This document shows positions 23,213 to 56,421 of a DNA stretch of 64,000 bases, one piece after another. The notes under the pieces were generated by a model. It ran no database searches. It saw only the letters and a list, made by a program, of their open reading frames with translations, and was not told the DNA's origin. Made by a program: the position numbers and the translations under genes. The DNA is from an uncultured Acidobacteriaceae bacterium (GTDB lineage: Bacteria > Acidobacteriota > Terriglobia > Terriglobales > Acidobacteriaceae), in assembly GCA_963836295.1 (NCBI GenBank), contig CAWIIY010000004.1, forward strand, positions 26,962 through 90,961, written 5' to 3'. The number at the start of each line of letters is the position of its first letter. Position 1 is the first letter of the stretch.

Positions 23213-24628
23213 ATGAATCCACTTGTACTGCCAGACACCGAGTACAAAGCAGTCTTCGAGCGTATTACCCAACTTGCGTTGGAGTATCTAGCCTCGATCG
23301 GGGAACGGCCAACTTTTCCGAAACGAACCGGAAGCGAAACAGAAGCTTTATTTGCCAAGCCCTTGCCAGAGCATGGAATGGGCGAGGACGCTCTCGACAA
23401 TCTAAGGCAGCTGATCGAGTCCATACGCGTTACCGGCCCCCGTTTTTTCGGTTACGTGCTCGGTTCCGGAGAGCCCATCGCTGCCGCCGCGGATCTGCTG
23501 GCTAGCGTGCTGAATCAGAATGTGACAGCGTGGCGCTCATCGCCCTCGGCACTGACGATCGAACGCGTCGTGGTGGGCTGGCTGGCAGAAGCGATCGGCT
23601 GCGGTGGGTTCAGCGGAAGTTTAACGGGCGGCGGTTCCTCGGCAAACCTGATGGGACTCGCTATGGCGCGCGAAGCCCGCGCGCCCGCAAACGAGATCGG
23701 TGCGCGTCCGGGAACGATCTATGCCTCCGACCAGGTCCACATGTCGATTCCCAAGGCTATCGCTTTGCTGGGCATCGGTAGAGAGCATCTCCGGCTCATT
23801 CCTTGCGACGACGACTTTCGGATTCGTGTCGATCTTTTGCGCGCGAGCATGGAACGCGATCTCAGTGCCGGATTGACCCCTATCGCGATTGTGGGTTCTG
23901 CCGGAACGGTTGCTACCGGAAGTATCGATCCGCTGCTCGAGTTGGCGGAAATCGCGCATGAGTCTGGCGCTTGGTTTCACGTGGACGGGGCCTACGGCGC
24001 TCTGGCCGCCATTGCCGAACCGGCAAAGTTTGCGGGACTGAACCAAGTCGATTCGTTGTCGCTCGATCCGCACAAATGGCTGTATCAGCCGCTCGACTGT
24101 GGATGCCTGCTCTACCGCGATGCGGCGGCCGCGCGCCGCGCGTTCTCACATACCGGAGACTACGCCAAGTCGCTGCTGGACGATCCCGTGGAGGGCTTCG
24201 TGTTCTTCGAGGAAACAATCGAGCTGTCGCGGCGCTTTCGCGCGCTGAAGATTTGGTTGTCGCTGCGCTATCACGGGTTGGCGAACTTTCGCGAGGCAAT
24301 CCGCGATGACCTAATCCACGCGAAGCTGTTGGCAGGGCTGATTACGAAGCAACCCGAACTCGAACTCCTGGCTCCCGTCCCACTCAGCGCAGTCTGCTTT
24401 CGCCATCGATCGCAGAGTGACGCTGACCGCAACAGTAACGGGTTGAACCAAGAAATATTGCAGGGCGTGATTCGCCGAGGGAAGGTATTCTTGTCCAACG
24501 CGACGATTCATGGCAAATTCGCGTTGCGGGCCTGCATAGTGAATCATCGCACCACGCCGAATGACATCGAACAGGTGGTGAGCGAAGTGCTTGCCGTGGG
24601 CAGGGAATTGTCCGCAGGAGTCGGCTAG
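23213..24628 (+). CDS. Group II PLP-dependent decarboxylase
   Basis: SLDPHKWLYQPLDCGCLLYRD contains the PLP lysine. Alternative GTG start at 23135 overlaps the previous stop. Confidence 0.85.
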   Translation: MNPLVLPDTEYKAVFERITQLALEYLASIGERPTFPKRTGSETEALFAKPLPEHGMGEDALDNLRQLIESIRVTGPRFFGYVLGSGEPIAAAADLLASVLNQNVTAWRSSPSALTIERVVVGWLAEAIGCGGFSGSLTGGGSSANLMGLAMAREARAPANEIGARPGTIYASDQVHMSIPKAIALLGIGREHLRLIPCDDDFRIRVDLLRASMERDLSAGLTPIAIVGSAGTVATGSIDPLLELAEIAHESGAWFHVDGAYGALAAIAEPAKFAGLNQVDSLSLDPHKWLYQPLDCGCLLYRDAAAARRAFSHTGDYAKSLLDDPVEGFVFFEETIELSRRFRALKIWLSLRYHGLANFREAIRDDLIHAKLLAGLITKQPELELLAPVPLSAVCFRHRSQSDADRNSNGLNQEILQGVIRRGKVFLSNATIHGKFALRACIVNHRTTPNDIEQVVSEVLAVGRELSAGVG

Positions 24629-42785: not shown

Positions 42786-43592
42786 ATGGTACTGGACTTA
42801 GGCGCAATCGCCGGAAGAGTTGCCGTAGGTCTAGCCGTCGGCGTCCTGGTTGGACTCACTGGACTCGGCGGCGGCATGGTGCTGCTCCCAGTACTGATTT
42901 CTGTCTTGGGCGTTCCACCCATCCTCGCCGTCGGCTCCGATGCCGTTATCAACTGCATTACCAAGATTGGAGCGGGTGGACTGCATTGGCGTCAGGGAAA
43001 CGTCAGTTGGCGACTGGTGCTCAGCCTGACTTACGGCAGCATCCCGGGCGCCATCATTGGAGTGGCCATCCTGACATGGGTGCGTGCGACCTTCGGGAAT
43101 GGGGTCAACGACTTCCTGCGGGCCTCAATCGGGGTCTTGTTGGTCGTCATTCCAGTTGGATACTTGTTCAAGCCGCGCGCTTCCGCTCCTCAGGTTTCTT
43201 TTTCGGTATTGCAGGAGAAAAAGTATTGCTTTGGTGTCACGCTCATCGGATTCTTCGCCGGGATTCTGGTGGGCTTGACCTCCATCGGCTCGGGCAGTGT
43301 CATCCTGGTGCTGCTACTAGTCTTCTACGGTTTTCCGCCCGCCATGCTGGTGGGCACCGACATTATTCATGCCGTTCTGCTGGCAGGGCTGACCGGCTGG
43401 CTTCAGTTCAAGCTCGGCAACGTGGATTTCGTTCTCGTTCTGTGCGTGCTCATGGGTTCTGTCCCAGGAGGCCTCTTGGGCGCTTATCTGGCCAGCCACG
43501 TGTCATCCTCCCGGCTCAAGCAGGTACTCTGCGTGCTGCTCATGGCCGTTGGGGCAAGAATGCTCTGGGGAGTGTTGGTCCATGCTAACTGA
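42786..43592 (+). CDS. TauE/SafE-family anion permease
   Basis: Polytopic membrane protein; GLTGLGGGMVLLPVL and internal repeat GLTSIGSGSV. Confidence 0.8.
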   Translation: MVLDLGAIAGRVAVGLAVGVLVGLTGLGGGMVLLPVLISVLGVPPILAVGSDAVINCITKIGAGGLHWRQGNVSWRLVLSLTYGSIPGAIIGVAILTWVRATFGNGVNDFLRASIGVLLVVIPVGYLFKPRASAPQVSFSVLQEKKYCFGVTLIGFFAGILVGLTSIGSGSVILVLLLVFYGFPPAMLVGTDIIHAVLLAGLTGWLQFKLGNVDFVLVLCVLMGSVPGGLLGAYLASHVSSSRLKQVLCVLLMAVGARMLWGVLVHAN

Positions 43593-44397
43593 GTCTGCGC
43601 AGCGCCAATACCTGGCGCGCATCAAGCGTGCTCTGCAGGCTGCCACCGAGATCGCCAGGCAGTATGCGCCTGGCACGTTTCGCGTGCGCGACAACGGCGG
43701 ACGCAACGTGATCACCGAGGTTGACTGCCGGCTTAGCGAGGTGCTCCGCGGCCACTTACTGCAGCCTGGCGAGGGTTGGCTTTCGGAGGAAGATCCCGAC
43801 GACCAGGCACGGCTGGCTTCCGACATTGTCTGGGTGGTAGATCCCGTAGACGGCACGCGCGAATTCGTCGATGTCATTCCCGAGTGGTGTATCTCGGTGG
43901 GACTCGTCGTGGAGGGAGTGGCTACCGCCGGCGGCACCTGCAATCCGGCCAGCAATGAGTCGTTTTTGGGCTCGCTGGATTGCGGCGTTACGTACAACGG
44001 TCGTCTCGTGCGCGCCGCAACGCGCACAACTTTGGATGGTGCAGTCGTGCTCGCCAGCCGCCAGGAGTGCAAACGCGGAGAGTGGCGGCGCTTCGACCAA
44101 GCTCCCTTCGAGGTTCGACCGATGGGATCCATCGCCTACAAACTCTCCCTTGTTTCTGCGGGACTGGCCGATGCCACGTGGACACTGTCTCCCAAGCACG
44201 AGTGGGATGTGGCCGCTGGAGTCGCGCTGGTCACTTCCGCGGGTGGCCATGTTGCCTGCACCGACAATGCCGCGCCGCGGTTCAATCGCAGCAACACGCT
44301 TGTGGCGAAATTGGTGGCCAGCGGAGAAGCCCTCTGGCCAGAAATCGTTCAATTCATTGAGCGAGATCGAAGTTCGAAGAACCTTGATACAGCCTGA
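43582..44397 (+). CDS. cysQ: Inositol-monophosphatase-family 3'(2'),5'-bisphosphate nucleotidase
   Basis: WLSEED and WVVDPVDGTREF motifs; overlaps the permease by 11 nt. Confidence 0.75.
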   Translation: MLTESAQRQYLARIKRALQAATEIARQYAPGTFRVRDNGGRNVITEVDCRLSEVLRGHLLQPGEGWLSEEDPDDQARLASDIVWVVDPVDGTREFVDVIPEWCISVGLVVEGVATAGGTCNPASNESFLGSLDCGVTYNGRLVRAATRTTLDGAVVLASRQECKRGEWRRFDQAPFEVRPMGSIAYKLSLVSAGLADATWTLSPKHEWDVAAGVALVTSAGGHVACTDNAAPRFNRSNTLVAKLVASGEALWPEIVQFIERDRSSKNLDTA

Positions 44398-44740
44398 ACA
44401 AAAGGGACAAGATGCGCGTCAGCCCGCAACGCATGTAGTTGAAGCTATTGGAGAAACAAGACTTACGGATGATGAGGTACAGGACATTTGAGGCCGATTC
44501 ACCCAAATCAAAAGGCAAGCTAAATCAATGATTTACAGCCACGGTCCTGGCTCCGTACTACCACCTCTCTGGAAAGTTGCCCCGGTATTAGCAACAGATT
44601 GCGATCAAACATGTCCGCCATCCCTGCATGCTTGACATACCGTCATTGCGCGTCCCGAAGCGCCGATGAATAAGCTTCGATCCTGTGCTATAGTCGATAA
44701 TCTGCAGGGTTGGACGCCAGTTTCAGATCCGGAGGAGTTG

Positions 44741-44971
44741 ATGAAGTACCGGCGGAACGTTCTAACTACTTTTGTGGTGTGTGCTTTGTGCCTTGTATTT
44801 GTTACAACCCCGGCTTACGCATACGTCGACCCCAACGCAGTGGGTTTGGCTTCCCAGATACTGACTCCTATCCTGATAGCCGCCGCCGCCGGCGTTACAT
44901 TCCTTAGAAAACGAATCGGAGCTGCTTTCGGCGCATTGGCGCGGCGCCTGCGGCGACGCGCTAATGCCTAG
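44741..44971 (+). CDS. Small membrane protein (76 aa)
   Basis: GGAGGAG lies 4 nt before the ATG. Signal/TM segment, YVDPNAVGLASQILTPILIAAAAGV second TM, Arg-rich tail. Stop overlaps the next start (ATGCCTAG). Confidence 0.45.
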   Translation: MKYRRNVLTTFVVCALCLVFVTTPAYAYVDPNAVGLASQILTPILIAAAAGVTFLRKRIGAAFGALARRLRRRANA

Positions 44972-46925
44972 TCGCGATTTCCGTTCCACGGTCGCGTCGC
45001 TCTGGTTCCGGCTGATCACCCTCGGGATTCTCGGCTTGGCCTTTGCCGAAACGCTCAGTCTGGCACAGGGAGAGGTTCAGGGCTGGACCTTTTATCTCAC
45101 CACTGCTGGGATCGTTTTCGAAGTAGCGGTGCGTCTGATTTTCGCGTCGCTGGCCGGTGTCGCTTTAGGGACCCTCTGTACCGCCGCCCTTGCCCCCTTT
45201 CTCTGGCATTTCAGGTCATCGCGCGAACGAATTGCCGAGTGGGCGACAAAGGTTGGCGTGGTTCTGGTCGTATTCCTGGATTCCAGGTTTGCGTTGACAA
45301 TCCTGATCAATTTGTGGGGGGCTAACCACGGCCCGCGATTTGCGACCACTTTGCTCACAGCCCACTTCCTGGCTTTCGCCGTAGCCCTTTACATTCCTCG
45401 CATCCGGAGACAAGTGGTGACGAGCATCGACGGCTTCATGGGCGAAAAGATGACTCGACGCACCGCTATTGCGACAATCGTCGGCGCTGGTGGTCTAGTG
45501 GCCACGGAATTTGCTCTTAGCAGGACAGCACCCGTGGTAAAGGCAGCGCTGCTTCCGCAGCGGCCAAAATCTAACATCCTGCTGATCACTTTCGACGCCT
45601 TAAGTGCGGAAGATATGTCCCTTTACGGGTATGGGCTGCCGACCACTCCGATGATCGACGCTTTTGCCCGCACGGGTACAGTCTTTAAGAACTTCTATTC
45701 CGCCTCTACCTTCACGACTCCAAGCATAGCGACGCTGCTGACGGGACTCTATCCCTCAGGACACCATGTTTATCAGCTGAGAGGCCACGTGCGGGCGCAG
45801 GACGCCAAGAGGAGCCTGCCGCACGCCATGCGAGCCGCCGGCTACGCCACTGGCGCGTTCTTCTCCAACCCGTATGCATACTATCTCGCGGAGACCATGA
45901 GGAACGAGTTCGATTTCCTGCCGCAGCCAACCTTCCAGCAGGGTGGGTTGCAACATCTGTGGGAGGGCACCAGCTGGCTGCACCAGGATACTAGGATTGG
46001 AAGCCGCATCGACGAATACAACGATTTGATGTATGTCTGGAATTCTCTGGGCCGGTTGCCCTACGTTCTCCCCCTGGAGTTCCGGGCGGCCGAGAGTTTC
46101 GCACAGGCGCGGGAAATGCTCGCCAAATTGCCCGATGGATTTTTCCTGTGGGTCCATGTGATGACACCGCACAACCCCTATCATCCCGATGCGGCAGACC
46201 GGGGACGTTTCATCCCTGACGACCAACTGCGAACATTTGAATTTGAAGGGGACGACGGCTTGCCTCGCTGGTATCCGCATTACAGCCCCGACCAGCAGAG
46301 CCAAGTGAACCAGCGTCGTCTTGCCTACGACGAGTTCGTCGCCACCGCCGATCGCGCCTTCGGGGTCTTCATGTCGGAATTGGAAAACAGCGGAAATTTG
46401 AGGGACACAACGGTCATTGTGTCGGCCGATCATGGGGAAAGTTTTGAGGGCGGCGTCTATCAGCATGAAAGCCGGTATCTGACCCGGCCGGTTATCCACA
46501 TCCCTCTTATCATCCGCACACCCGACCAGCAGGAAGGCCGCATGGTTGCATTTACCGCGGACCAGACAGCGCTCGCACCCACGATTCTCGAGCTCGCCGG
46601 TCAGCCGAAACCTGATTGGATGCCCGGCCAATCGCTTGTGCGGTGGCTGAACAGGGATGGCCAAGGCGAAGGTGAGGGACTGGCGTTCTGCCAGTATCTG
46701 CAGCAGAACAGCGTTTTCAAGCCCCTGCGGGAGGGAACCGTAGGCGTGATCGACGGGCAGTACCAATATGTCCTTGTCCTTTCTACTGGAACGGGTGTGC
46801 TTCGCCGGCTGAACGAAGCGCAGTTCTGGAACCTCGACCGCGCTGCCGAATATCCTGAGCGGGCGGAGGCATTGCGCGCTGTGATCTATTCGCGATTTCC
46901 GAATCTAATGCAAAAATCTACGTGA
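44964..46925 (+). CDS. Polytopic membrane protein with alkaline-phosphatase-superfamily (sulfatase/LtaS/EptA-like) domain
   Basis: About 5 N-terminal TM helices, then ILLITFDALSAEDM, SASTFTTPSIATLLTG (Thr where sulfatases have Cys/Ser) and SADHGESF. Confidence 0.75.
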   Translation: MPSRDFRSTVASLWFRLITLGILGLAFAETLSLAQGEVQGWTFYLTTAGIVFEVAVRLIFASLAGVALGTLCTAALAPFLWHFRSSRERIAEWATKVGVVLVVFLDSRFALTILINLWGANHGPRFATTLLTAHFLAFAVALYIPRIRRQVVTSIDGFMGEKMTRRTAIATIVGAGGLVATEFALSRTAPVVKAALLPQRPKSNILLITFDALSAEDMSLYGYGLPTTPMIDAFARTGTVFKNFYSASTFTTPSIATLLTGLYPSGHHVYQLRGHVRAQDAKRSLPHAMRAAGYATGAFFSNPYAYYLAETMRNEFDFLPQPTFQQGGLQHLWEGTSWLHQDTRIGSRIDEYNDLMYVWNSLGRLPYVLPLEFRAAESFAQAREMLAKLPDGFFLWVHVMTPHNPYHPDAADRGRFIPDDQLRTFEFEGDDGLPRWYPHYSPDQQSQVNQRRLAYDEFVATADRAFGVFMSELENSGNLRDTTVIVSADHGESFEGGVYQHESRYLTRPVIHIPLIIRTPDQQEGRMVAFTADQTALAPTILELAGQPKPDWMPGQSLVRWLNRDGQGEGEGLAFCQYLQQNSVFKPLREGTVGVIDGQYQYVLVLSTGTGVLRRLNEAQFWNLDRAAEYPERAEALRAVIYSRFPNLMQKST

Positions 46926-48025
46926 GCCGACAATATCTGAACCTCACTTCGGGCGCTTGGCGGCAACTTCGCCGGAGCTGGCACCTCCGACCAAGTCCTA
47001 TGCTGCTTTGGCAAACCCTGGCGCCCGGTTCCCTATTCTCCGCGATGGCGGCATTGCAGGAGATGTCCGCTCGCAAGCAACTGGCCCAGGCAAATTACCG
47101 GAACGCCATCGTAATTCTTGGCTACTGGCGTTCCGGCACGACGCTGCTGCACGAGTTACTGTGCCTTGATGCCCGTTACACCTATCCGACGACGCATGCT
47201 TGCATGAACCCTCATCATTTCCTACTCTCGGAAGCCTCGGTCCTGGCTCGCGGAGGTTCCAGCCGGCAGCGGCCGATGGATGAGATGGAGGTTCATGCCG
47301 GTTCGCCGCAGGAGGACGAGTTCGCACTTCTGTCGCTGGGCGCGCGTTCGCCTTACGAAGCGCTTCTGATTCCCAGGATACTGCCGGAGGCCCTGAAGCT
47401 CACCGACCCTCGAGACCTTTCATCGCGAGATGAAGAGCGCTGGCGCGAGGTTTTCCTGAGTTTTCTCGCGGGTGTATCGGTGCGGGGAATGGGCCGGCCC
47501 ATGATCCTGAAATCGCCGACGCACGGCTGTCGCGTCGCCATTGTTCGCGAACTGCTTCCGGATGCGCGCTTCGTGGTGATCGTGCGCGACCCTTGGACCA
47601 GCTTCGAATCGGTGGTCCGAATGTGGCGCAAAATGTTTGAAACGTACGCCATTGGATCGATACTGCCAGATGACGATATCCGCGAAGCGATTATCGCCGA
47701 TCGGCCCCGCTTTGAGGCGAAGCTGGCCTCCAGTACCGCCGATCTGCCCACGAACCGATTCATGACGATAACCTACGAGTCTCTAATTGCTAATCCAGCC
47801 GAGGTGATCGAACAGCTCTACGATCGGCTGGAACTCGGAGATTTCAACACAATGCGTGAGGCGGTCATCGCCGAGACGAAACGCCGCCGTGGATACCAGG
47901 CGAAGGGCACCTTGCCGTCGGACTTATGGCGACAGCGAATTAGTAATGAGTGGGCGGCGATTCTAACGCATCATGCAAATTTACGGCAACGCGCGTTCTC
48001 TCTGCCGGAAGGGGCTCCGGGCTAA
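46922..48025 (+). CDS. Sulfotransferase-family protein
   Basis: 5'-PSB-like GYWRSGTTLLHELL and 3'-PB-like KSPTH...VVIVRDP. GTG overlaps the previous stop (GTGA). Confidence 0.75.
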   Translation: MSRQYLNLTSGAWRQLRRSWHLRPSPMLLWQTLAPGSLFSAMAALQEMSARKQLAQANYRNAIVILGYWRSGTTLLHELLCLDARYTYPTTHACMNPHHFLLSEASVLARGGSSRQRPMDEMEVHAGSPQEDEFALLSLGARSPYEALLIPRILPEALKLTDPRDLSSRDEERWREVFLSFLAGVSVRGMGRPMILKSPTHGCRVAIVRELLPDARFVVIVRDPWTSFESVVRMWRKMFETYAIGSILPDDDIREAIIADRPRFEAKLASSTADLPTNRFMTITYESLIANPAEVIEQLYDRLELGDFNTMREAVIAETKRRRGYQAKGTLPSDLWRQRISNEWAAILTHHANLRQRAFSLPEGAPG

Positions 48026-48217
48026 GTTTCCGAGCTGTCGCCGGTCCGGTGAATCACGCCATGGCTAACTACGAATGCAGACCCGACGATCGGATTCCCG
48101 AGTGGCACGGAGCCCTTACAGGTCAATCAAGGGAGCCTCAAATAGGAGCTCGGCGTCCCATCGACTCTCTACAACAGGGTTCCTGATGCGATCACGCCCA
48201 TTCATAACCATCCTTGG

Positions 48218-49051: not shown

Positions 49052-49228
49052 TTACAGGACACCCCATCGGACACTAGCCCCGCCCCTTGGGGGCACCCTC
49101 AAAGCCGAAAAAGACCCCCGCCCACGTTTAGGGTCGCCCCTTTTTGTGGGAACCCAACCATGCGCGTTGGGATCAGCCAGCGTGGCGCCGTAATAAACGA
49201 ATTCGCGTTCGATGACTTGGATTTTCAC
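49052..49228 (-). CDS. Small hypothetical protein (58 aa)
   Basis: GTG start with GAAGGAGG 6 nt upstream; VKIQVIEREFVYYGATLADPNAHGW... then an Arg/Gly/Pro-rich tail. No family recognised. Confidence 0.3.
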   Translation of the reverse strand: MKIQVIEREFVYYGATLADPNAHGWVPTKRGDPKRGRGSFSALRVPPRGGASVRWGVL

Positions 49229-49587
49229 TCGGCACCTCCTTCTCTGTAGGTTGTCAGGATTAGTGAAAAGTCGTGCCACAGTTGTTGAAAAAACGAAGAT
49301 CTCTTCGCCGACAAAGGCGCGCATGACTCTTCCAATCTGCATGACTTGTGTGAAAGCTGAGATCGCGCACGGTTTTCGGCAACAACAAGAGCGACAATGC
49401 AGGTGTCTGGGGCTAGGCCGAAGGATCCCGGCAACCCTTAGAGCGAAAGTGAGTCGTTTAACTGTTCTCTCGTCGTCTTCTCTGCTCAGCAGACCTTGGT
49501 GGACCTTCCCTCTAAACGTCGCCGTCGAGGCAGTGGAAAAGTGGAAAGCATTTTGTGCTTTCCAAGCGCAGCGGCTTTTCCACGCTC

Positions 49588-49993
49588 TCATCCGGCTGCC
49601 GAGGGCAGCGGTGGGTGGCTACTGGACAGCACGGCCCAAGCAATGCGGGCCAGCTTGTTAGCAATAGCGACCACGATTTTATTGGGTGGTGCATGCCGGG
49701 CGAGCCGGTATATGCTATCGGCCCGAGTACGGGCAGTTGGCCGAACGGGGACTTTCACCTCGCAAGATTTGTAGTTTGCTCCTCTCAATGAGGGGGTTCA
49801 CCCCAGCGTACTGGAAATTGTGGCTGTGAAGGGATCCAGTTTGGTCCGGATTCAACGGGGGCCGCTGCAAGCCTTTTTGGGGAATGTCTCGTATTCCCAT
49901 CCGACTGCTGGACTTCAAATAGGGGACTTCCATCGCCCGGCAATCGAATATGCAGAGTGCTCCATAGACCTGTGAACATCGGTTCATCTTCAC
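49588..49993 (-). mobile_element. IS110-family transposase remnant (C-terminal domain only, frameshifted)
   Basis: Across three frames: LPGDGSPL...SPKRLAA, then FQYAGVNP.ERS, then NKIVVAIANKLARIAWAVL. Order and spacing match the Transposase_20 domain. The N-terminal DEDD domain is absent. Confidence 0.45.
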
Positions 49994-50008: not shown

Positions 50009-50503
50009 TTACCCTCCAGAGATCGCCCCCACGGCAATATCGATCATGTCCCCATCGGATATCGGCAGCGCGCTAAACGCGCTCGCAGGAATTACCTCGT
50101 TGTTGACCGCTACAATGAAATGGTTGATGTTCCGGTTCCGAAAGGTCTTAGCAAGACATTCTTCGCGCCATTTCGTTAGGAGAGATTCCAGAGTGTTAAT
50201 CTCCCAAACATATTCGTGTGTATTGATGCGCACCCTCTTTAGCTTCGTTTCGTATATACGAGCAGGGCTCATAACTTCGCCGTGTTCTTTTTCCACTGGC
50301 AATCCGAGCTTTTCTCTTCGTTTATTGGCACAGTTGAAGCACAGTGCCCCATCATTGACCGCCCGGCCGATGTACAACGATGCTGCCGCGGTCCACGGCC
50401 GCACCTGGGAAGCATTCTGCGGAAGCGTCTGACCCCCGCAATCCACACACTTCAGGAAATGTTTCCGGGTGTTACGTAGCATGATGGAGGGAGATTCACT
50501 CAT
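50009..50503 (-). CDS. Zinc-ribbon + ThiS/MoaD-like beta-grasp protein ending in Gly-Gly
   Basis: CVDCG...CFNCANK (four Cys). C-terminus FIVAVNNEVIPASAFSALPISDGDMIDIAVGAISGG-stop. Confidence 0.7.
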   Translation of the reverse strand: MSESPSIMLRNTRKHFLKCVDCGGQTLPQNASQVRPWTAAASLYIGRAVNDGALCFNCANKRREKLGLPVEKEHGEVMSPARIYETKLKRVRINTHEYVWEINTLESLLTKWREECLAKTFRNRNINHFIVAVNNEVIPASAFSALPISDGDMIDIAVGAISGG

Positions 50504-51029
50504 GGCATCTCATCCTAGTGCGCGCCCCCCGGCCGATCACAATGGAAATCTGGTCGCCATCCGAGATCAGCACAGAGCTGAAGGCGTCTGCGGGAATCAC
50601 TCGGTCGTTTACGGCGACACGCCACCACCTGCTATCTGCTTTCTTGTACTCGTCATAGAAATACTGATCTTTCCATTTCTCGATGACGGATTCCAACGTG
50701 GTGACGTTCCAAGTGTATTCCCACTGATTGACGCGTATTGTCTTGAGAGTCGACTCATTTGAAGAAGCGAGAACTGGACGCTCCGACTCCCTGTTCAAAG
50801 TATGACCGTTATCCTGTTCTAGAGGCAGGCTGAGCGGCGCCCTGCGCTTATTCGCACAAGTAAAGCAGAGCGCTCCGTCATTGACAGCCCCGCTGATATA
50901 CAACGACGCTGCCGCGGTCCAGGGCCGCTCGTTGGAAGCATTCTGCGGAAGCGTCTGACAGCCGCAGTCAACACACTTCAGAAAATGTTTACGCGTGTTA
51001 CGAAGTGATGTGGGTGGACGTTGACTCAT
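50496..51029 (-). CDS. Paralogous zinc-ribbon + ThiS/MoaD-like protein (C-terminus ambiguous at a G6 run)
   Basis: Same N-terminal module (CVDCG...CFTCANK). C-terminus RVAVNDRVIPADAFSSVLISDGDQISIVIGRG... passes through the homopolymer at 50525-50530. Confidence 0.65.
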   Translation of the reverse strand: MSQRPPTSLRNTRKHFLKCVDCGCQTLPQNASNERPWTAAASLYISGAVNDGALCFTCANKRRAPLSLPLEQDNGHTLNRESERPVLASSNESTLKTIRVNQWEYTWNVTTLESVIEKWKDQYFYDEYKKADSRWWRVAVNDRVIPADAFSSVLISDGDQISIVIGRGARTRMRCHE

Positions 51030-51047: not shown

Positions 51048-53415
51048 TTACATCGCAGCAACCATGCGTTTGATCAGCGCTTTTATTTCCTGCTTCTTGT
51101 AGCCGTTGTCCTTCATTGCGCAGCATCCATGCAGAGCAGCATCAGCGGCCTTTTCAGCCAGTTCAGTCGAGGGTTTCTGGCCGATAAGTAGGCACTCGGC
51201 TTCTTCCCTGCGAAGCGGAACAGGCGCGACTCCACCCAGGACGAGTCTTACGTCCTTGGTCACGCCGTCTTCTAGTTTGTAGACGTAGGCCAAGCTGGCG
51301 ATAGCAAAATCGATCGATTTGCGGACACGGAATTTGTCGTACTTCATGGTGTAGCCTTGCGGCACGGCGAAGCGGATCGCTGTCACCAGTTCGTCCTGGT
51401 CGAGCATATCTTTCACTGCCAGTCTGGTAGTGAAGAGGTTGGCTGCATCGACAACCCTCTTCGTGGTGACGATCTGGGCATCCAGCGCTATCAGCACGGG
51501 AGAAATATCCGAGGCGTTGACAGAGTAGCAGCCGCAGTTCATGCAGCGAGCCGCTTCCGCCAGGCACTCTTCCGTTGTGATCGTGGAGCTGTCTTCTTTA
51601 TCAAGTGCGCGCTCGCTGACGGAAAGCTCCTTATCCCCATCCCCGATCGCTTCTGCTTTCTTCGCGCCTTCGGGATCGAACTTCAGAAAGCCGTTTTGCA
51701 CGTGCGGCTCGGGCGCACCTCCGCCAAGCTCCTGGTTTATCGCCTCGGCAGCGTTGCGTCCGGTACGGATGGCCATGATTACCGTGGAGGAGCCGGTGAC
51801 AACATCGCCACCGGCGAAGACGCCGCTGCGGCTGGTTCGTCTGAGTGCATGGCTCGACCTTGATGAGTCCCCGGTTTAGCGCGAGTTTGTACTTCTCCTC
51901 GATAAAGGAGAGGTCTACCTTCTGACCGGCAGCCAGCAGCACGGAGTCGCAATCCACAGTGATCTTGGAATGGCGATCGTATTGTGGAGCGAATCGGTGT
52001 TCCGCATCGAAGACCGAGGTGCAGGTCACGAGTTCCATGCCACGAACTTTTTCGCTTTCATAGATCAGACGCGAAACGCCGTAGCCATTCCTGATAACGA
52101 TGCCTTCTTCTACGGCGCGGGCAATTTCTTCCGCGCTGGCAGGCATTTCCCACGCCTGTTCAAGGCAAGCCAGGGTCACCGACTTCGCGCCAAGGCGTTT
52201 CGCGGTGATTGCGACGTCCATGGCCACGTTGCCGCCGCCGACGACCAGCACGTTGTTGCGCTGCTTCTTGTTAATCCAGAGACTGACTTCTCTGAGGAAA
52301 TCCAGACCGAATTCAGTGAACTCCTCGCCGTCGAAACCGAGCGCCGGACGCTTCCACGCGCCCGTAGCGTAGAACACCTTGTCGTAGGAAGCTTCGAGCT
52401 CTGCCGTAGTGACGTCCTTGCCGACACTAATGTTTGTCTGGAATGTGACGCCCATTTCTTTGTAAGCGTCGATGACGTTCTTTACGTAGTGCTTGGGCAG
52501 ACGGTAGGCAGGGATAGCATAGGTCAACATGCCACCTGGCTCTTCCATTTTGTCGATGACGGTGACGGTGTGTCCTGCTTTGCGCAGGTAGTACGCAGCA
52601 GAAAGGCCTGCCGGACCTCCACCGACGAGGGCAATTTTTTTGCCCGTCTCAGTTTTCGGCGCCGCATAGAAGATCTCGAGATTCTCAAGGATATAGTCAC
52701 CAATGACCCGCTCAACTGCGTGAACGGAAACAGACTGATCCGTTGTCCTGCGGTTGCAGCCATCCTGGCAGAAGTGGGCGCAGACACGCGAAGTGATCAT
52801 CGGGAGTGGGTTCGCCTGCATCAGGATGGCCGCGGCTCCCTTCAGGTCCCCAGCGCGCAGCTTTTCCATGTAACCAGGGATATTCGTGTTCCCTGGGCAG
52901 CTCACCGTGCAAGGCGTGGCGGCGGCCTTCATGCCGCCGAAGATGGAGTGATAGCGGTTATCGCCGCGGATTGCATAACACTCATCTCCGCCCTTGCGCA
53001 TGCAGTCGTAACGGTCACCGATCTCATGGGGATAGCGGTAGAACCAGCAGCGAACATCCTGGCAGATATTGCCGCCGATCGTGGCAAGATTACGTATGAT
53101 CGGCGTAGCCACGGAATAAGCGGCCTCGGCCAACATCGGAACTTCGGCCTTGATCGTCTCCGATTCGGCGATCGTCACCAGCCGCGTCAGGGCGCCGATC
53201 TCGATCTGCCCGTTTTCGCACTTGATGTAATCCGCACCTTCGATCCCCTTCAGGCTGATGACCGTTTCCGGGTAGTCTTTGAGTAGTCTGCCCTTGAGGA
53301 CGCCCAGCAGGTCGGTGCCGCCGGCCATTACCACGGTTTTCCCTTTTGCGCTCTCCTGCATTGCGGCGGCGCAGTTTGCGAATGATTCAGCTCGCGCGTA
53401 CTCGAACCGTTTCAT
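51048..53415 (-). CDS. Chimeric flavoprotein subunit: CoxM/XdhB-type FAD-binding domain + GltD-like [4Fe-4S]/NAD(P)H module + CO-dehydrogenase-flavoprotein C-terminal domain (1-nt frame change at 51825)
   Basis: MAGGTDLL and ATIGGNI; then CPGNTNIP...SRVCAHFCQDGC, KIALVGGGPAGLSAAYYL, VLVVGGGNVAMD. The extra base at 51825 joins to GVFAGGDVVTGSSTVIMAIRTGRNAA... (ORF 51048..51776), ending with LVTAIRF...DFAIASLA...VLGGVAPVPLR. Confidence 0.75.
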
Positions 53416-53428
53416 GATGAATCCTTCC

Positions 53429-55751
53429 TTAAGCCTTGCCGAGGGCGTTAAGTACAACAGGCGGGGTTGCGGGATATTCCTTGATGTCAGCACCGATTGC
53501 GTTTGAGATCGCCATTAACGCCGCACTCGCCAGCGCGGCACCGGAAATCTCACCGATACCAAGTGCTTTGAACATGAAGGTGTCGATCTGCGACTCCATC
53601 ACGAAGCCGTCGTAGGGTGGGATTTCATTGAAGGTCATTCCACTTGTAGTCGATCATGCTGCTCGCGAGCAGGCGACCCGTGGAGGGATCGAGGTTGCAG
53701 TCCTCAAAGATCGCGGTATCGAGGCAGGCAGAACCGATGCCGCCGTGGAGCTGCATTTCGAGTGTTTTCGAGTCGATGATCTGACCGATATCAGTGCCAC
53801 CAGCCAGCTTGAGAATCTCGGAGTGACCCGTTTCCAGGTCAACCTCAACTTCAACGAACACCGCGATACAGCTTGGGCAATCGAATTTCTCAACGTGCTT
53901 GCCGTAACCAACGATGGAAAGCTCTCTGTCGGCCAGCCTGCTGACTGAAATTTTGATCTCCGGCGTGTCGCGCACGAAGACGACCATGTCTCTCATGTCG
54001 AGTTGGTCTACGGGGCGATCCAGCTTAATGGAAGCAATCTCCATCGCCTTCTTCTTCGCGTCCAAAGCAGCCTCGCTCACCGCCTTGCCTATGGTGATGG
54101 TGCCGCGAGACCCGCACAAGCCGAAGTTAGAGGGGTTGTTCCGGCTGCCAGGATCGGTGATCGAGACCCACTCATAGGGGCAGTTCAGCACTTCCGCGAC
54201 GACCTTGCAGGCGTTGCTCCTCTGCCCCATGCCGGATTCGGTGATGTCGCACTCGACAATGACAGATGAACCTCCACCGCCGACGTTCGATACGTCCAGA
54301 TCGGGAATGATACGGACGATCGCTTCGGTGTTGTCTTCCTGAATGTCGCAGTTGCCGATGACGCCCATGCCCACGCCGCGAGCCTTGGTGCCGTTGACGG
54401 ACGTCGGCTTGAGCCATCCCTTCCACTTTTCGGACCAGCCGAACCGGTCGGCGGCTGCCTGCATGACCTCCGGGAAGAACAACGAGGAACGGCTCTTATA
54501 AACGCGGCCGTCACGCCAGATGTATTTATCGCCAGGGGAGACGTAGTTCTTCTTGAAGACGTCGAGGGGGTTGAAATTACCTTCCCGCATAATCGCGCAC
54601 AGCAGTTTCTCAAGGCAGCTATTCAGTTCCTGACCACCGTACCCGCGGACGATCCCAGCCTGCTGGCGGTTGGTGACGGCAATATGGCTGTCGAGAAACC
54701 AGTTCTCGCACTTGGCGAGCACGAGCTGAGCTTCGCCCAGACCTACGCCGATCTGACCCTGGGTCGAGTTGCAGACGCAACCGACATCGACCAGCCAGTC
54801 GCCTTTAACGGCGGTGACGATACCTTCCTTATTCGCGGCCATCGTGGCTTTGATCGTGCTGCCCAAGCGGACTTCATAGGTCATGAGCTGTTCGGCTTTG
54901 CTCAATACGACCTTGACCGGCCGTTTCGTTACATTCGCCAGCATGGCGGCGGAAACGGCGGCGTTCAGCATCGTCTGCTTGTTACCGTAGCTTCCACCAA
55001 CGTTGAACGTGTTCACGTCAATCACTGCGCCCGGCACGTAGGCCTGCATCAAGAGCTTCATGATGTGCGAGCTCTGCGAGGATGCCCACACCGTATAGTG
55101 CGTCCCGCCGTCGTACCGGGCGATCACCGACGGTGTCTCCGGAGCTGCCGGGCACGGCATCCTTGAAAATTCGATCTTGTCGTCTGCGACAAAGTCGGCT
55201 TCGGCGATGGCCTTGTCGGGATCTCCTCTCTTGACCTGCCAGAAGGGCCCATCCGGCTGGAAGTAGGGGCAACCGGGGTCCACCAGGTTGCCGGGAAAGC
55301 GTTCGTATAACTGTGGAGCGCCTGGCTTAAGGGCGTCCTCTGCCGTAAAAACAGCCGCAAGCTGCTCGTACTCGACCGTGATCAGATCAACGGCCGCTTC
55401 GGCGATCTCCATTGTGTCGGCAGCAACGATCGCTATTTGGTCGCCCACATGAAAGGCCTTCGATTCCAAAACGCGCCGGTGTACCGGCCAACCGAGAGCT
55501 GCCAGGAACGGCGCGTTTTCGTGGGTGATGACCGCGCGGACGCCTTCCAGCGCTTCCGCCGCGGAGGTGTCGATCTTCACGATTTTGGCGTGCGGGTAAG
55601 GACTCCGCTTCGTCCTTCCGTACAACATCTGCGAAAGCGAGAAGTCGTCCAGAAAGCGCGCTTTGCCGGTGACGATGTCGCGGGCTTCTTTTCGAGGTGA
55701 GTATTTGCCGATGTGACGATAATTCGGCTGTCTAACATCGCGGTATTTCAT
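53429..55751 (-). CDS. Molybdopterin-binding large subunit of a xanthine dehydrogenase/aldehyde oxidase-family hydroxylase (1-nt frame change at 53639)
   Basis: N-terminal a/b-hammerhead pattern (IGKYSPRKEARDIVTGKARFLDD...YGRTKRSPYPHAKI). The C-terminal 69 aa (...FKALGIGEISGAALASAALMAISNAIG...) sit in ORF 53429..53638 after one extra base. Confidence 0.85.
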
Positions 55752-55767: not shown

Positions 55768-56421
55768 CTAATCGAGCGAATGCTTGCAAATATGTCCGGT
55801 CGCGTAAGGACTGGGATACAGTTCCTGTCGAATCGGAATCGGGTCCTCGGCCAGATCATTGGCCCGGACGATCGTCGAGAGTTCCGCGTCCGTGTTGCCC
55901 GCGAGTTTGTTCAAGGCTCTCAAGACTGTGTAGTGGCTGATGCAGCGGCAGAAATTGCCGGCAAGAGCTTCCTTGATCTCATCCGGCGTCGGCTGGGCCT
56001 TCTTCAGGAAGAGAGCTTTCGCGACCATGATGATGCCCGGGGTGCAGAAGCCGCACTGGAAAGCGTATTCATCGATAAATGCCTGCTGGATCGGATCAAG
56101 ACCCTTCCTGGCATCTTCCAGTCCCTCTATAGTGGTGATGTTCCTACCGTCCATTTCGACCGTCAGCGTCATGCAGGCGGCAATAGCATCTCCGTCGGCA
56201 ATGACGGCACAGCAACCACAGGCACCGGCTCCACACGATTCCTTCGAGCCGGTCAACTGCAGCCGTTTGCGAAGTGTTTCAAGGAGTGTTTCGGAGGGCG
56301 AAATGTCGCCCGCGCCATCGCCGACAGAGAACTTGTATCTTCTGTCGTTTATGTTCAGGGTAATCGATTCAGGCGTAACTAATTTGCTGCTGTTTTGAGA
56401 AACCACACCGCTCGTGACCAT
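55768..56421 (-). CDS. [2Fe-2S]-binding small subunit (CoxS/XdhC-iron-sulfur type) with N- and C-terminal extensions
   Basis: CGAGACGCC and CGFCTPG...NFCRC motifs; AAGGAAG lies 6 nt before the ATG. Confidence 0.85.
   Translation of the reverse strand: MVTSGVVSQNSSKLVTPESITLNINDRRYKFSVGDGAGDISPSETLLETLRKRLQLTGSKESCGAGACGCCAVIADGDAIAACMTLTVEMDGRNITTIEGLEDARKGLDPIQQAFIDEYAFQCGFCTPGIIMVAKALFLKKAQPTPDEIKEALAGNFCRCISHYTVLRALNKLAGNTDAELSTIVRANDLAEDPIPIRQELYPSPYATGHICKHSLD

Follow-up and report, generated by a model that had tools for sequence, protein, structure and literature searches.

Small ThiS/MoaD-like proteins encoded beside a particular pterin-dependent enzyme have been noted since 2006, when MoaD genes linked to those of aldehyde:ferredoxin oxidoreductase (AOR) were proposed to encode carriers that serve the enzyme's tungsten cofactor (Iyer, Burroughs & Aravind 2006, PMC1779556). 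The same work reports that MoaD is rarely adjacent to MoeB, and that ThiS-like carriers are known sulfur donors in thioquinolobactin/PDTC-type pathways (PMC1779556). In Aromatoleum aromaticum, two MoaD-like genes come after the three structural genes in the aorABCDE operon; their products, AorD and AorE, were not found in the purified enzyme and are seen as maturation factors (PMC6365974). Here we analyze what looks like an unusually clean case of such enzyme-linked genes: T1 and T2, located in a 64,000-nucleotide stretch of DNA (hereafter, the window) from an uncultured Acidobacteriaceae bacterium (assembly GCA_963836295.1, contig CAWIIY010000004.1). A first-pass annotation, made from the sequence by itself, had placed two adjacent minus-strand paralogues of 164 and 177 amino acids there, exactly where the open reading frames (ORFs) lie, and had proposed that both could be sulfur carriers or modifiers serving the molybdoenzyme encoded immediately upstream. 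The two genes and the domains of T1 are as follows:

50009..50503, minus strand: T1, 164 amino acids, putative zinc-binding N-terminal domain plus ThiS/MoaD-like beta-grasp domain, ending in GAISGG and a stop codon (ORF listing)
50496..51029, minus strand: T2, paralogue of 177 amino acids, same N-terminal domain plus ThiS-like beta-grasp domain, with a basic tail lacking Gly-Gly (GG), GRGARTRMRCHE (ORF listing)
50012..50242, minus strand: beta-grasp (ThiS-like) domain of T1, residues ~88-164, with the C-terminal GAISGG (structure prediction, Foldseek, hhalign)
50315..50476, minus strand: N-terminal four-Cys domain of T1, residues ~10-63, RNTRKHFLKCVDCG...GALCFNCANKRR (family alignment)

The stop codon of T2 and the start codon of T1 overlap within ATGAGTGA, and translational coupling of the two genes is suggested by this overlap. 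T1 matches P0001, a hypothetical protein from a metagenome-assembled genome (MAG) of Candidatus Korobacteraceae (Acidobacteriota), at 100% identity. Two alignments of the family, with 46 (A1) and 49 (A2) members, reveal a common layout, in which an N-domain of ~60 residues is joined by a variable linker to a C-domain of ~75 residues. The C-domain carries the ThiS-like motif VNxxxIPxxxFxxxxIxDGDxIxIxxG, with the terminal GG in T1. Profile models of known carriers score the two proteins below their curated cut-offs, at E 3e-3 and 3e-4, a narrow miss, for PF02597 (18.4 and 21.6 bits, cut-off 22.5) and at E 1e-6 and 1e-5 for TIGR01683 (28.9 and 25.6 bits, cut-off 37.45), and alignment with hhalign to stand-alone ThiS-family proteins that pass PF02597 gave a probability of 99.0% (E 2.8e-18). 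In the AlphaFold2 (AF2) models, the C-domain has a block-mean predicted local distance difference test score (pLDDT) of 81-94 in T1 (residues 91-160) and 78-96 in T2, mostly above 90 in both, while the mean for the whole T2 model is 79. The order of elements is beta-beta-alpha-beta-beta-beta. For both proteins, the best Foldseek matches in the PDB are ThiS structures (3cwi, 1zud, 2lek, 1tyg; template modelling score, TM, 0.72-0.75; root-mean-square deviation, rmsd, 2.1-3.9 A), followed by MoaD structures (3rpf, 1nvi); the top match of T1 is the ThiS 3cwi (E 6e-4, TM 0.72), and the ThiS matches of T2 have TM 0.74 and rmsd 2.1-2.2 A. A five-stranded, ubiquitin-like and ThiS-like beta-grasp fold is thus confidently predicted for T1 and T2 alike, so that the ThiS/MoaD-like tail of the first-pass annotation was borne out by structure prediction, structure search and profile alignment. 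Of the fold and the GG terminus of the ThiS/MoaD superfamily, T1 has both and T2 the fold only.

The shared CxxC...CxxC module described in the first-pass annotation is equally real: over 54 residues, T1 and T2 are identical at 89% of amino acids and 83% of nucleotides. Across the 46-49 aligned members, C19, C22, C55 and C58 are invariant and form two CxxC knuckles; D21, W37, G52 and R62 are also invariant, as is K14 in A1 and nearly so in A2. The N-domain is modelled with a pLDDT of ~90 in T2, and in both models the second CxxC opens a helix (H56-65), so that the domain may resemble a treble-clef finger more than a classical zinc ribbon, as judged from these models, in which the linker and tails come out disordered. 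The N-domain has no match among the Pfam and NCBIfam models or among PDB sequences (Foldseek aligns the beta-grasp only), and no homologue of the domain alone was found outside the family among 1.84e9 protein representatives.

Regarding its distribution, the family is rare. It comprises 84 clusters at 90% identity among 5.8 billion proteins; a profile search of 1.84 billion 50%-identity representatives gave 22 matches at E<=1e-3, of which ~15 are family members or fragments; and only 3 of 185,579 species-representative genomes carry it, namely a MAG of Acidobacteriaceae and two others that bear the label Actinomycetota. Some automatic pipelines already name members 'ThiS' or 'molybdopterin converting factor small subunit', and their ThiS-likeness is for that reason not new. 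In a neighbour-joining (NJ) tree, T1 and T2 form two old clades that lie side by side in most genomes. The C-terminal GG that had been noticed in one copy proved to be a feature of the whole T1 clade: 50 sequences end in GG, typically as GAVAGG, and all of them are T1. By contrast, GG is absent from the end of every T2 orthologue, more than 40 in number, and their tails are heterogeneous (GRGRYR/H/Y/F, GRASTHRVKRHE, GRGRLTGRKRRE, GCLLHPF). As every one of the stand-alone outgroup proteins has a terminal GG, T2 is a derived form that has lost it. A few T1s have residues past the GG, either GGR (L022:343-834, L023:5300-5791) or GGKF (P0087), and longer extensions of 12 and ~38 amino acids after GG occur among the T1s of P0089 and L026:7128-7814. 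Some known carriers are made as pro-forms with residues after GG. These T1s could likewise be pro-forms needing C-terminal processing, with no JAMM peptidase linked to them; alternatively, they may be read-through or assembly variants.

We then focused our attention on the genes that accompany T1 and T2. In the window, three genes for subunits of a molybdoenzyme lie directly upstream on the same strand:

55768..56421, minus strand: [2Fe-2S] small subunit, 217 amino acids, first of the five operon genes (Pfam/NCBIfam, synteny)
53429..55751, minus strand: molybdopterin-binding large subunit, 773 amino acids in relatives, split by a 1-bp insertion near 53639
51048..53415, minus strand: beta (FAD) subunit, 785-788 amino acids in relatives, split by a 1-bp insertion near 51839

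The linkage to a molybdoenzyme, pointed out in the first-pass annotation, is kept at every locus examined: in all 24 loci with upstream sequence, drawn from JGI, ENA, NCBI and Logan assemblies, the order is [2Fe-2S] subunit, Mo subunit, FAD/GltD subunit, T2 and T1. The genes outside this five-gene unit vary from locus to locus, which is consistent with a mobile cassette. The domains of the enzyme (Ald_Xan_dh_C, MoCoBD_1/2, Fer2_2 and FAD_binding_5) place it in the xanthine-oxidase family, and its Mo subunit is nearest to the alpha subunit of 4-hydroxybenzoyl-CoA reductase (1rm6_A, E 3.5e-42) and to large chains of CO dehydrogenase. The FAD subunit, as well as its copy at L009:6389-8755, is HcrB/CoxM-like (FAD_binding_5 ... 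CO_deh_flav_C) with a complete NfnB/GltD-like insert, made up of Fer4_20 and Pyr_redox_2, which brings in an FAD/NAD(P)H domain and two [4Fe-4S] sites; among PDB sequences, the subunit is best matched by 9bov, 9n5u ('NfnA') and 8oh5. From its sequence, the enzyme may be a reductive family member, so far uncharacterised, that is NAD(P)H-linked or bifurcating.

In one subclade, whose T2 ends in LLHPF, the operon runs on after T1 with a conserved 389-amino-acid protein without a Pfam match, then XdhC and MoaA, that is, genes for insertion and for biosynthesis of the molybdenum cofactor (Moco), respectively (L004:1882-5079, also L025, L030, L032, L033 and L039). The idea that T1 and T2 replace XdhC is weakened by this subclade, which encodes XdhC directly after them.

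The nearest relatives outside the family point to cofactor metabolism as well. Among the 1.84e9 representatives, the best non-family profile matches were six GG-ending proteins of 72-77 amino acids that pass PF02597, and the gene context is informative for four of the six, the two others being uninformative. P0103 lies between an AOR gene and a ThiF-MOSC-MoaC-MoaA-MoeA-MoeA series with an ABC transporter; P0102 and P0104 are likewise found directly after AOR genes; and P0097 stands at the end of a MoCF_biosynth-XdhC-cysteine desulfurase (NifS)-NifU cluster.

Taken together, the best explanation, by analogy, is that T1 and T2 are probably an elaborated version of the MoaD/ThiS-like genes found directly after other pterin-enzyme genes. 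We favour, with about an even chance of being right, a reading in which both are factors devoted to maturing the co-encoded xanthine-oxidase-family enzyme, T1 being a sulfur carrier and T2 a partner that cannot be activated. This reading draws on the ThiS-like beta-grasp fold of both proteins, the conservation of GG in T1, the synteny in 24 of 24 loci, the XdhC-MoaA subclade, the cofactor-linked stand-alone relatives, the Aromatoleum precedent and the gene overlap. The C-terminal GG of T1 would be adenylated by an unlinked MoeB/ThiF-type enzyme and then converted to a thiocarboxylate, and the sulfur would pass to the pterin cofactor of the enzyme, either to the molybdopterin dithiolene or as the Mo=S ligand, upstream of XdhC or together with it. 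The family-specific four-Cys N-domain probably docks T1 and T2 onto a common partner or onto each other; a shared docking role is probable because the domain is nearly the same in both paralogues. T2, lacking GG, could not be activated, and would probably act as a non-catalytic stoichiometric partner (an adaptor or chaperone) whose synthesis translational coupling would keep in step with that of T1. As for the earlier proposal of sulfur carriers or modifiers serving the molybdoenzyme, the beta-grasp fold, the GG of T1 and the enzyme linkage speak for it, while T2, without GG in more than 40 orthologues, does not fit; it is still the best inference from sequence, for T1 only.

Several observations weigh against this reading. 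The Pfam and TIGRFAM ThiS scores remain under the curated cut-offs, and the best-conserved part of the proteins is the N-domain, which has no known role in sulfur transfer. No E1, MoaE, rhodanese, MOSC or cysteine desulfurase is encoded within 8-10 kb at any locus. In the lineages L007, L014, L015 and L043, only the GG-less T2 is kept, so that GG chemistry cannot be indispensable for the enzyme everywhere. Moreover, a 2026 review of Moco sulfuration has only XdhC and a cysteine desulfurase in bacteria, and no thiocarboxylate carrier (PMC13653126).

The absence of E1, E2 and JAMM genes nearby, remarked upon in the first-pass annotation, was confirmed. No ThiF/MoeB family member is listed in the precomputed Pfam tables for five distinct +-10 kb neighbourhoods, nor, judged from these tables only, a JAMM or E2 protein; at E<=0.01, tblastn searches of 31 loci gave nothing for ThiF, MOSC, NifS or NifU, and those of the whole window gave nothing for ThiF, MOSC or NifU. 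The sole NifS-like match in the window is weak (24% identity, E 1.5e-4) and lies at 23738-24118, distant from the operon. Since MoaD rarely adjoins MoeB (PMC1779556), a missing local E1 is not unusual.

It was also necessary to consider whether T2 is what it seems, as the first-pass annotation had suspected a frameshift in its tail and a recent duplication or gene conversion behind the likeness of the two N-domains. The sequence elements concerned are:

50525..50530, minus strand: run of six G in the T2 tail (six C on the plus strand), suspected frameshift site, unsupported
50408..50433, plus strand: 26-nucleotide stretch in the DNA coding for the T1 N-domain, identical to 50934-50959 (sequence comparison)
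50934..50959, plus strand: 26-nucleotide stretch in the DNA coding for the T2 N-domain, identical to 50408-50433 (sequence comparison)

The homopolymer is indeed present at 50525-50530, and one extra G would indeed change the end of the protein to GRGGAH and a stop, which, along with the two 1-bp insertions carried by the neighbouring large genes of the window, might suggest that T2 is a GG protein broken by a homopolymer sequencing error or by a recent frameshift. However, T2, including the G6 run, has exactly the same bases in three independent assemblies from other samples (L009, L011 and L012, all of which span T1 and T2 and are identical to the window; L010 spans T1), none of the more than 40 T2 orthologues is GG-ending, and T2 is a separate old clade. 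The tails of its orthologues vary around the G6 position and several resemble the window copy (GRASTHRMKCHE in P0064, and GRASTHRVKRHE) or share its as-assembled end, ...HR(V/M)K(R/C)HE. Because the assemblies are identical and the orthologue tails alike, we take T2 as assembled to be real and no broken GG protein; the frameshift is essentially refuted, and we give it hardly any chance.

The two stretches of 26 identical nucleotides were located at 50408 and 50934, but a recent duplication is ruled out by the two clades of the NJ tree and by the C-domain, in which orthologues are closer to each other (0.37-0.58 identity) than paralogues are (0.33-0.48). In the N-domain, same-genome paralogues share 0.67-0.89 of amino acids, versus 0.56-0.89 for orthologues from different genomes, and the nucleotide identity of the window paralogues is 0.83, versus 0.76-0.77 and 0.69-0.82 for orthologue pairs involving the window T1 and T2, respectively. 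Sharing of synonymous codons at identical N-domain residues shows no clear rise between paralogues. As paralogues are here about as alike as orthologues, the near-identical DNA points to a strong constraint shared by both N-domains. Of the two earlier suggestions, duplication thus falls, and for gene conversion the N-domain identities give a weak hint at most: judging from the sequences, it may contribute occasionally at most.

A single hybrid gene was observed on a short contig (L029:1016-1519), directly 3' of the beta subunit gene, with an N-domain identical to that of P0082 (a T2-only 'Actinomycetota' lineage) and a T1-type C-domain ending in GG. It looks like the product of unequal recombination between repeated N-domain sequences, or a chimeric contig.

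How T1 and T2 would serve the enzyme can be read in other ways. They might be small subunits that stay in the enzyme complex, or regulators of it, anchored through the N-domain and carrying no sulfur, the beta-grasp being merely a protein-protein interaction module, as in TmoB of toluene monooxygenase. The strict linkage to the enzyme in a fixed order, the translationally coupled genes, an N-domain that is the best-conserved part and common to both paralogues, the T2-only lineages and the lack of a nearby E1 would all suit such a role. Nevertheless, without some chemistry at the C-terminus it is difficult to account for the GG terminus across the T1 clade, including the forms with GG plus an extension; the closest relatives are free carriers that end in GG and occur in contexts of cofactor biosynthesis; and the analogous AorD and AorE did not co-purify with their enzyme (PMC6365974). 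For these reasons we consider permanent subunits unlikely. Rather improbable, in our view, is a T1 thiocarboxylate that donates sulfur to pathway chemistry (a thio-metabolite made with the Mo enzyme) or to in-place repair of Mo=S, with T2 as adaptor. This proposal agrees with the GG terminus and ThiS-like fold of T1, with its tie to one particular enzyme and not to a general Moco operon, with the ThiS-like donors of thioquinolobactin/PDTC-type pathways (PMC1779556), and with the close stand-alone relative found with XdhC, NifS and NifU, which are Moco sulfuration machinery. It is at odds with the existence of T2-only lineages and with a cluster that, unlike known thiocarboxylate clusters, lacks AMP-ligase, CoA-transferase, E1-rhodanese and JAMM genes.

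We hold it similarly improbable that the genes define a previously unknown sulfur route to the active site in the xanthine-oxidase family, whereby a zinc-finger-docked T1 thiocarboxylate, with the GG-less T2 as decoy or adaptor, would install or repair Mo=S, or take part in Mo-dependent C-S chemistry, on the assembled enzyme. Conjugation by an E1 only does exist in prokaryotes (SAMP/UbaA, TtuB/TtuC), and T1 could in principle be a ubiquitin-like (Ubl) modifier of the SAMP/TtuB type, whose GG a distant E1 would attach to lysines of the enzyme or of T2. The GG terminus and Ubl fold of T1 are those of such a modifier, and the shared N-domain lysine K14 is invariant in the 46 sequences of A1 and nearly so in A2. 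Yet no E1, E2 or JAMM gene occurs in any neighbourhood, the nearest relatives are cofactor-linked carriers, and nothing else points to conjugation, so that a modifier seems highly improbable. Overall, dedicated maturation factors, with T1 as the carrier, remain the reading that we prefer.

Some further observations concern the state of the operon and its surroundings. When compared with independent, 99.9%-identical assemblies, the window has two 1-bp insertions (~53639 and ~51839), each beside a substitution and neither at a homopolymer, which split the Mo subunit (773 amino acids) and the FAD/GltD subunit (788 amino acids) into two ORFs apiece. Comparison with L009 reveals both, and comparison with L011 the second; they represent either pseudogenisation in the strain or assembly errors. 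In L007, two C-terminal fragments of a class-V aminotransferase, cysteine-desulfurase-like, flank the operon (L007:3581-4309 and L007:10551-11033, covering Pfam positions 145-371 and 247-371), which hints that the operon arrived there by insertion or rearrangement. According to the gene table of L009, a sulfation and sulfate-activation cluster adjoins the operon at 43500-48100 of the window, with a sulfotransferase (46922-48025), a sulfatase-family protein (44964-46925), an inositol-monophosphatase/CysQ-like protein, TauE, CysN/APS kinase and PAPS reductase; it is not kept beside the operon in other lineages. Between 48500 and 57500, no Moco riboswitch or other RNA matched Rfam at the gathering score, and nothing convincing above chance was found as a terminator or promoter around the operon. 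Two candidates downstream of T1 were discarded: an IS110-like remnant (49588-49788), which was a guess from sequence without Pfam support, and a 'Prok_Ub' match in the ORF 49052-49591 (0.016, over 20 residues), which is at chance level.

The five-gene unit is rare and tightly syntenic, and offers a natural contrast between an activatable paralogue with GG and a non-activatable one, both with a private docking domain. If T1 is truly a thiocarboxylate carrier, the unit would show how a specific molybdoenzyme gets its cofactor sulfur, and would define a new zinc-finger-Ubl architecture together with a bacterial 'decoy' Ubl. The statement in the first-pass annotation that the family is not a described one agrees with our searches: neither Pfam nor NCBIfam covers the fusion, the pairing of GG and GG-less forms or the enzyme link, and literature searches yielded no account of the enzyme itself, of a fusion between a zinc ribbon and ThiS, or of xanthine-oxidase-family operons with ThiS-like genes.

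When set beside known systems, T1 and T2 share with the AOR-linked MoaD, AorD and AorE genes their nature as small ThiS/MoaD-fold genes that immediately follow the structural genes for a pterin-dependent oxidoreductase. The AOR-linked MoaD proteins end in GG, as T1 does, and are the nearest stand-alone sequence relatives of the beta-grasp, and the aor operon of Aromatoleum has the very same layout, with two tandem copies behind three structural genes. However, the partner here is a xanthine-oxidase-family Mo enzyme and not one with AFOR_N/AFOR_C; the AOR-linked proteins are single domains of ~70-90 amino acids, whereas T1 and T2 have 164 and 177, with the ~60-residue four-Cys N-domain and the linker; one paralogue, T2, is systematically without GG; and AOR clusters often include MoeB, MoaE or MoeA genes, none of which is near T1 and T2. 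Canonical MoaD and ThiS (PF02597/TIGR01683) have in common with them the beta-grasp, the ...VNxxxIPxxxFxxxxIxDGDxIxIxxxxxGG motif and, in T1, the C-terminal GG, but T1 and T2 score below the cut-offs, are two-domain proteins about twice as long, and occur outside thiamin and general Moco operons, T2 moreover lacking GG. The XdhC/PaoD chaperones, each specific to one xanthine-oxidase-family system, are similar in being the last genes behind the structural genes, with a presumed role in cofactor maturation for one enzyme, yet they have no sequence or fold relation to T1 and T2, and one T1/T2 subclade has an XdhC of its own. With QbsE/PdtH, HcyS and CysO, T1 shares the GG-dependent carrier logic, a few T1s having GG+R, GG+KF or longer ends; the clusters of these carriers, in contrast, encode an E1, frequently as a fusion with rhodanese, as well as a JAMM peptidase, neither of which is linked to T1 and T2 (PMC1779556). 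Ubl systems of the SAMP/TtuB or E1-E2-JAMM type differ in that T1 and T2 have no linked ThiF in the Pfam tables of five neighbourhoods or in the tblastn searches of 31 loci. The best reading of these comparisons is that the carrier domain of T1 and T2 is related to the enzyme-linked MoaD/ThiS-like maturation factors, and that the pair probably works in a similar way; given the other enzyme superfamily, the extra domain and the loss of GG in one paralogue, the pair is not a member of the described AOR-linked group, and what it adds to the known ThiS-likeness of its members is the fusion, the pairing of GG and GG-less forms, and the strict link to one enzyme.

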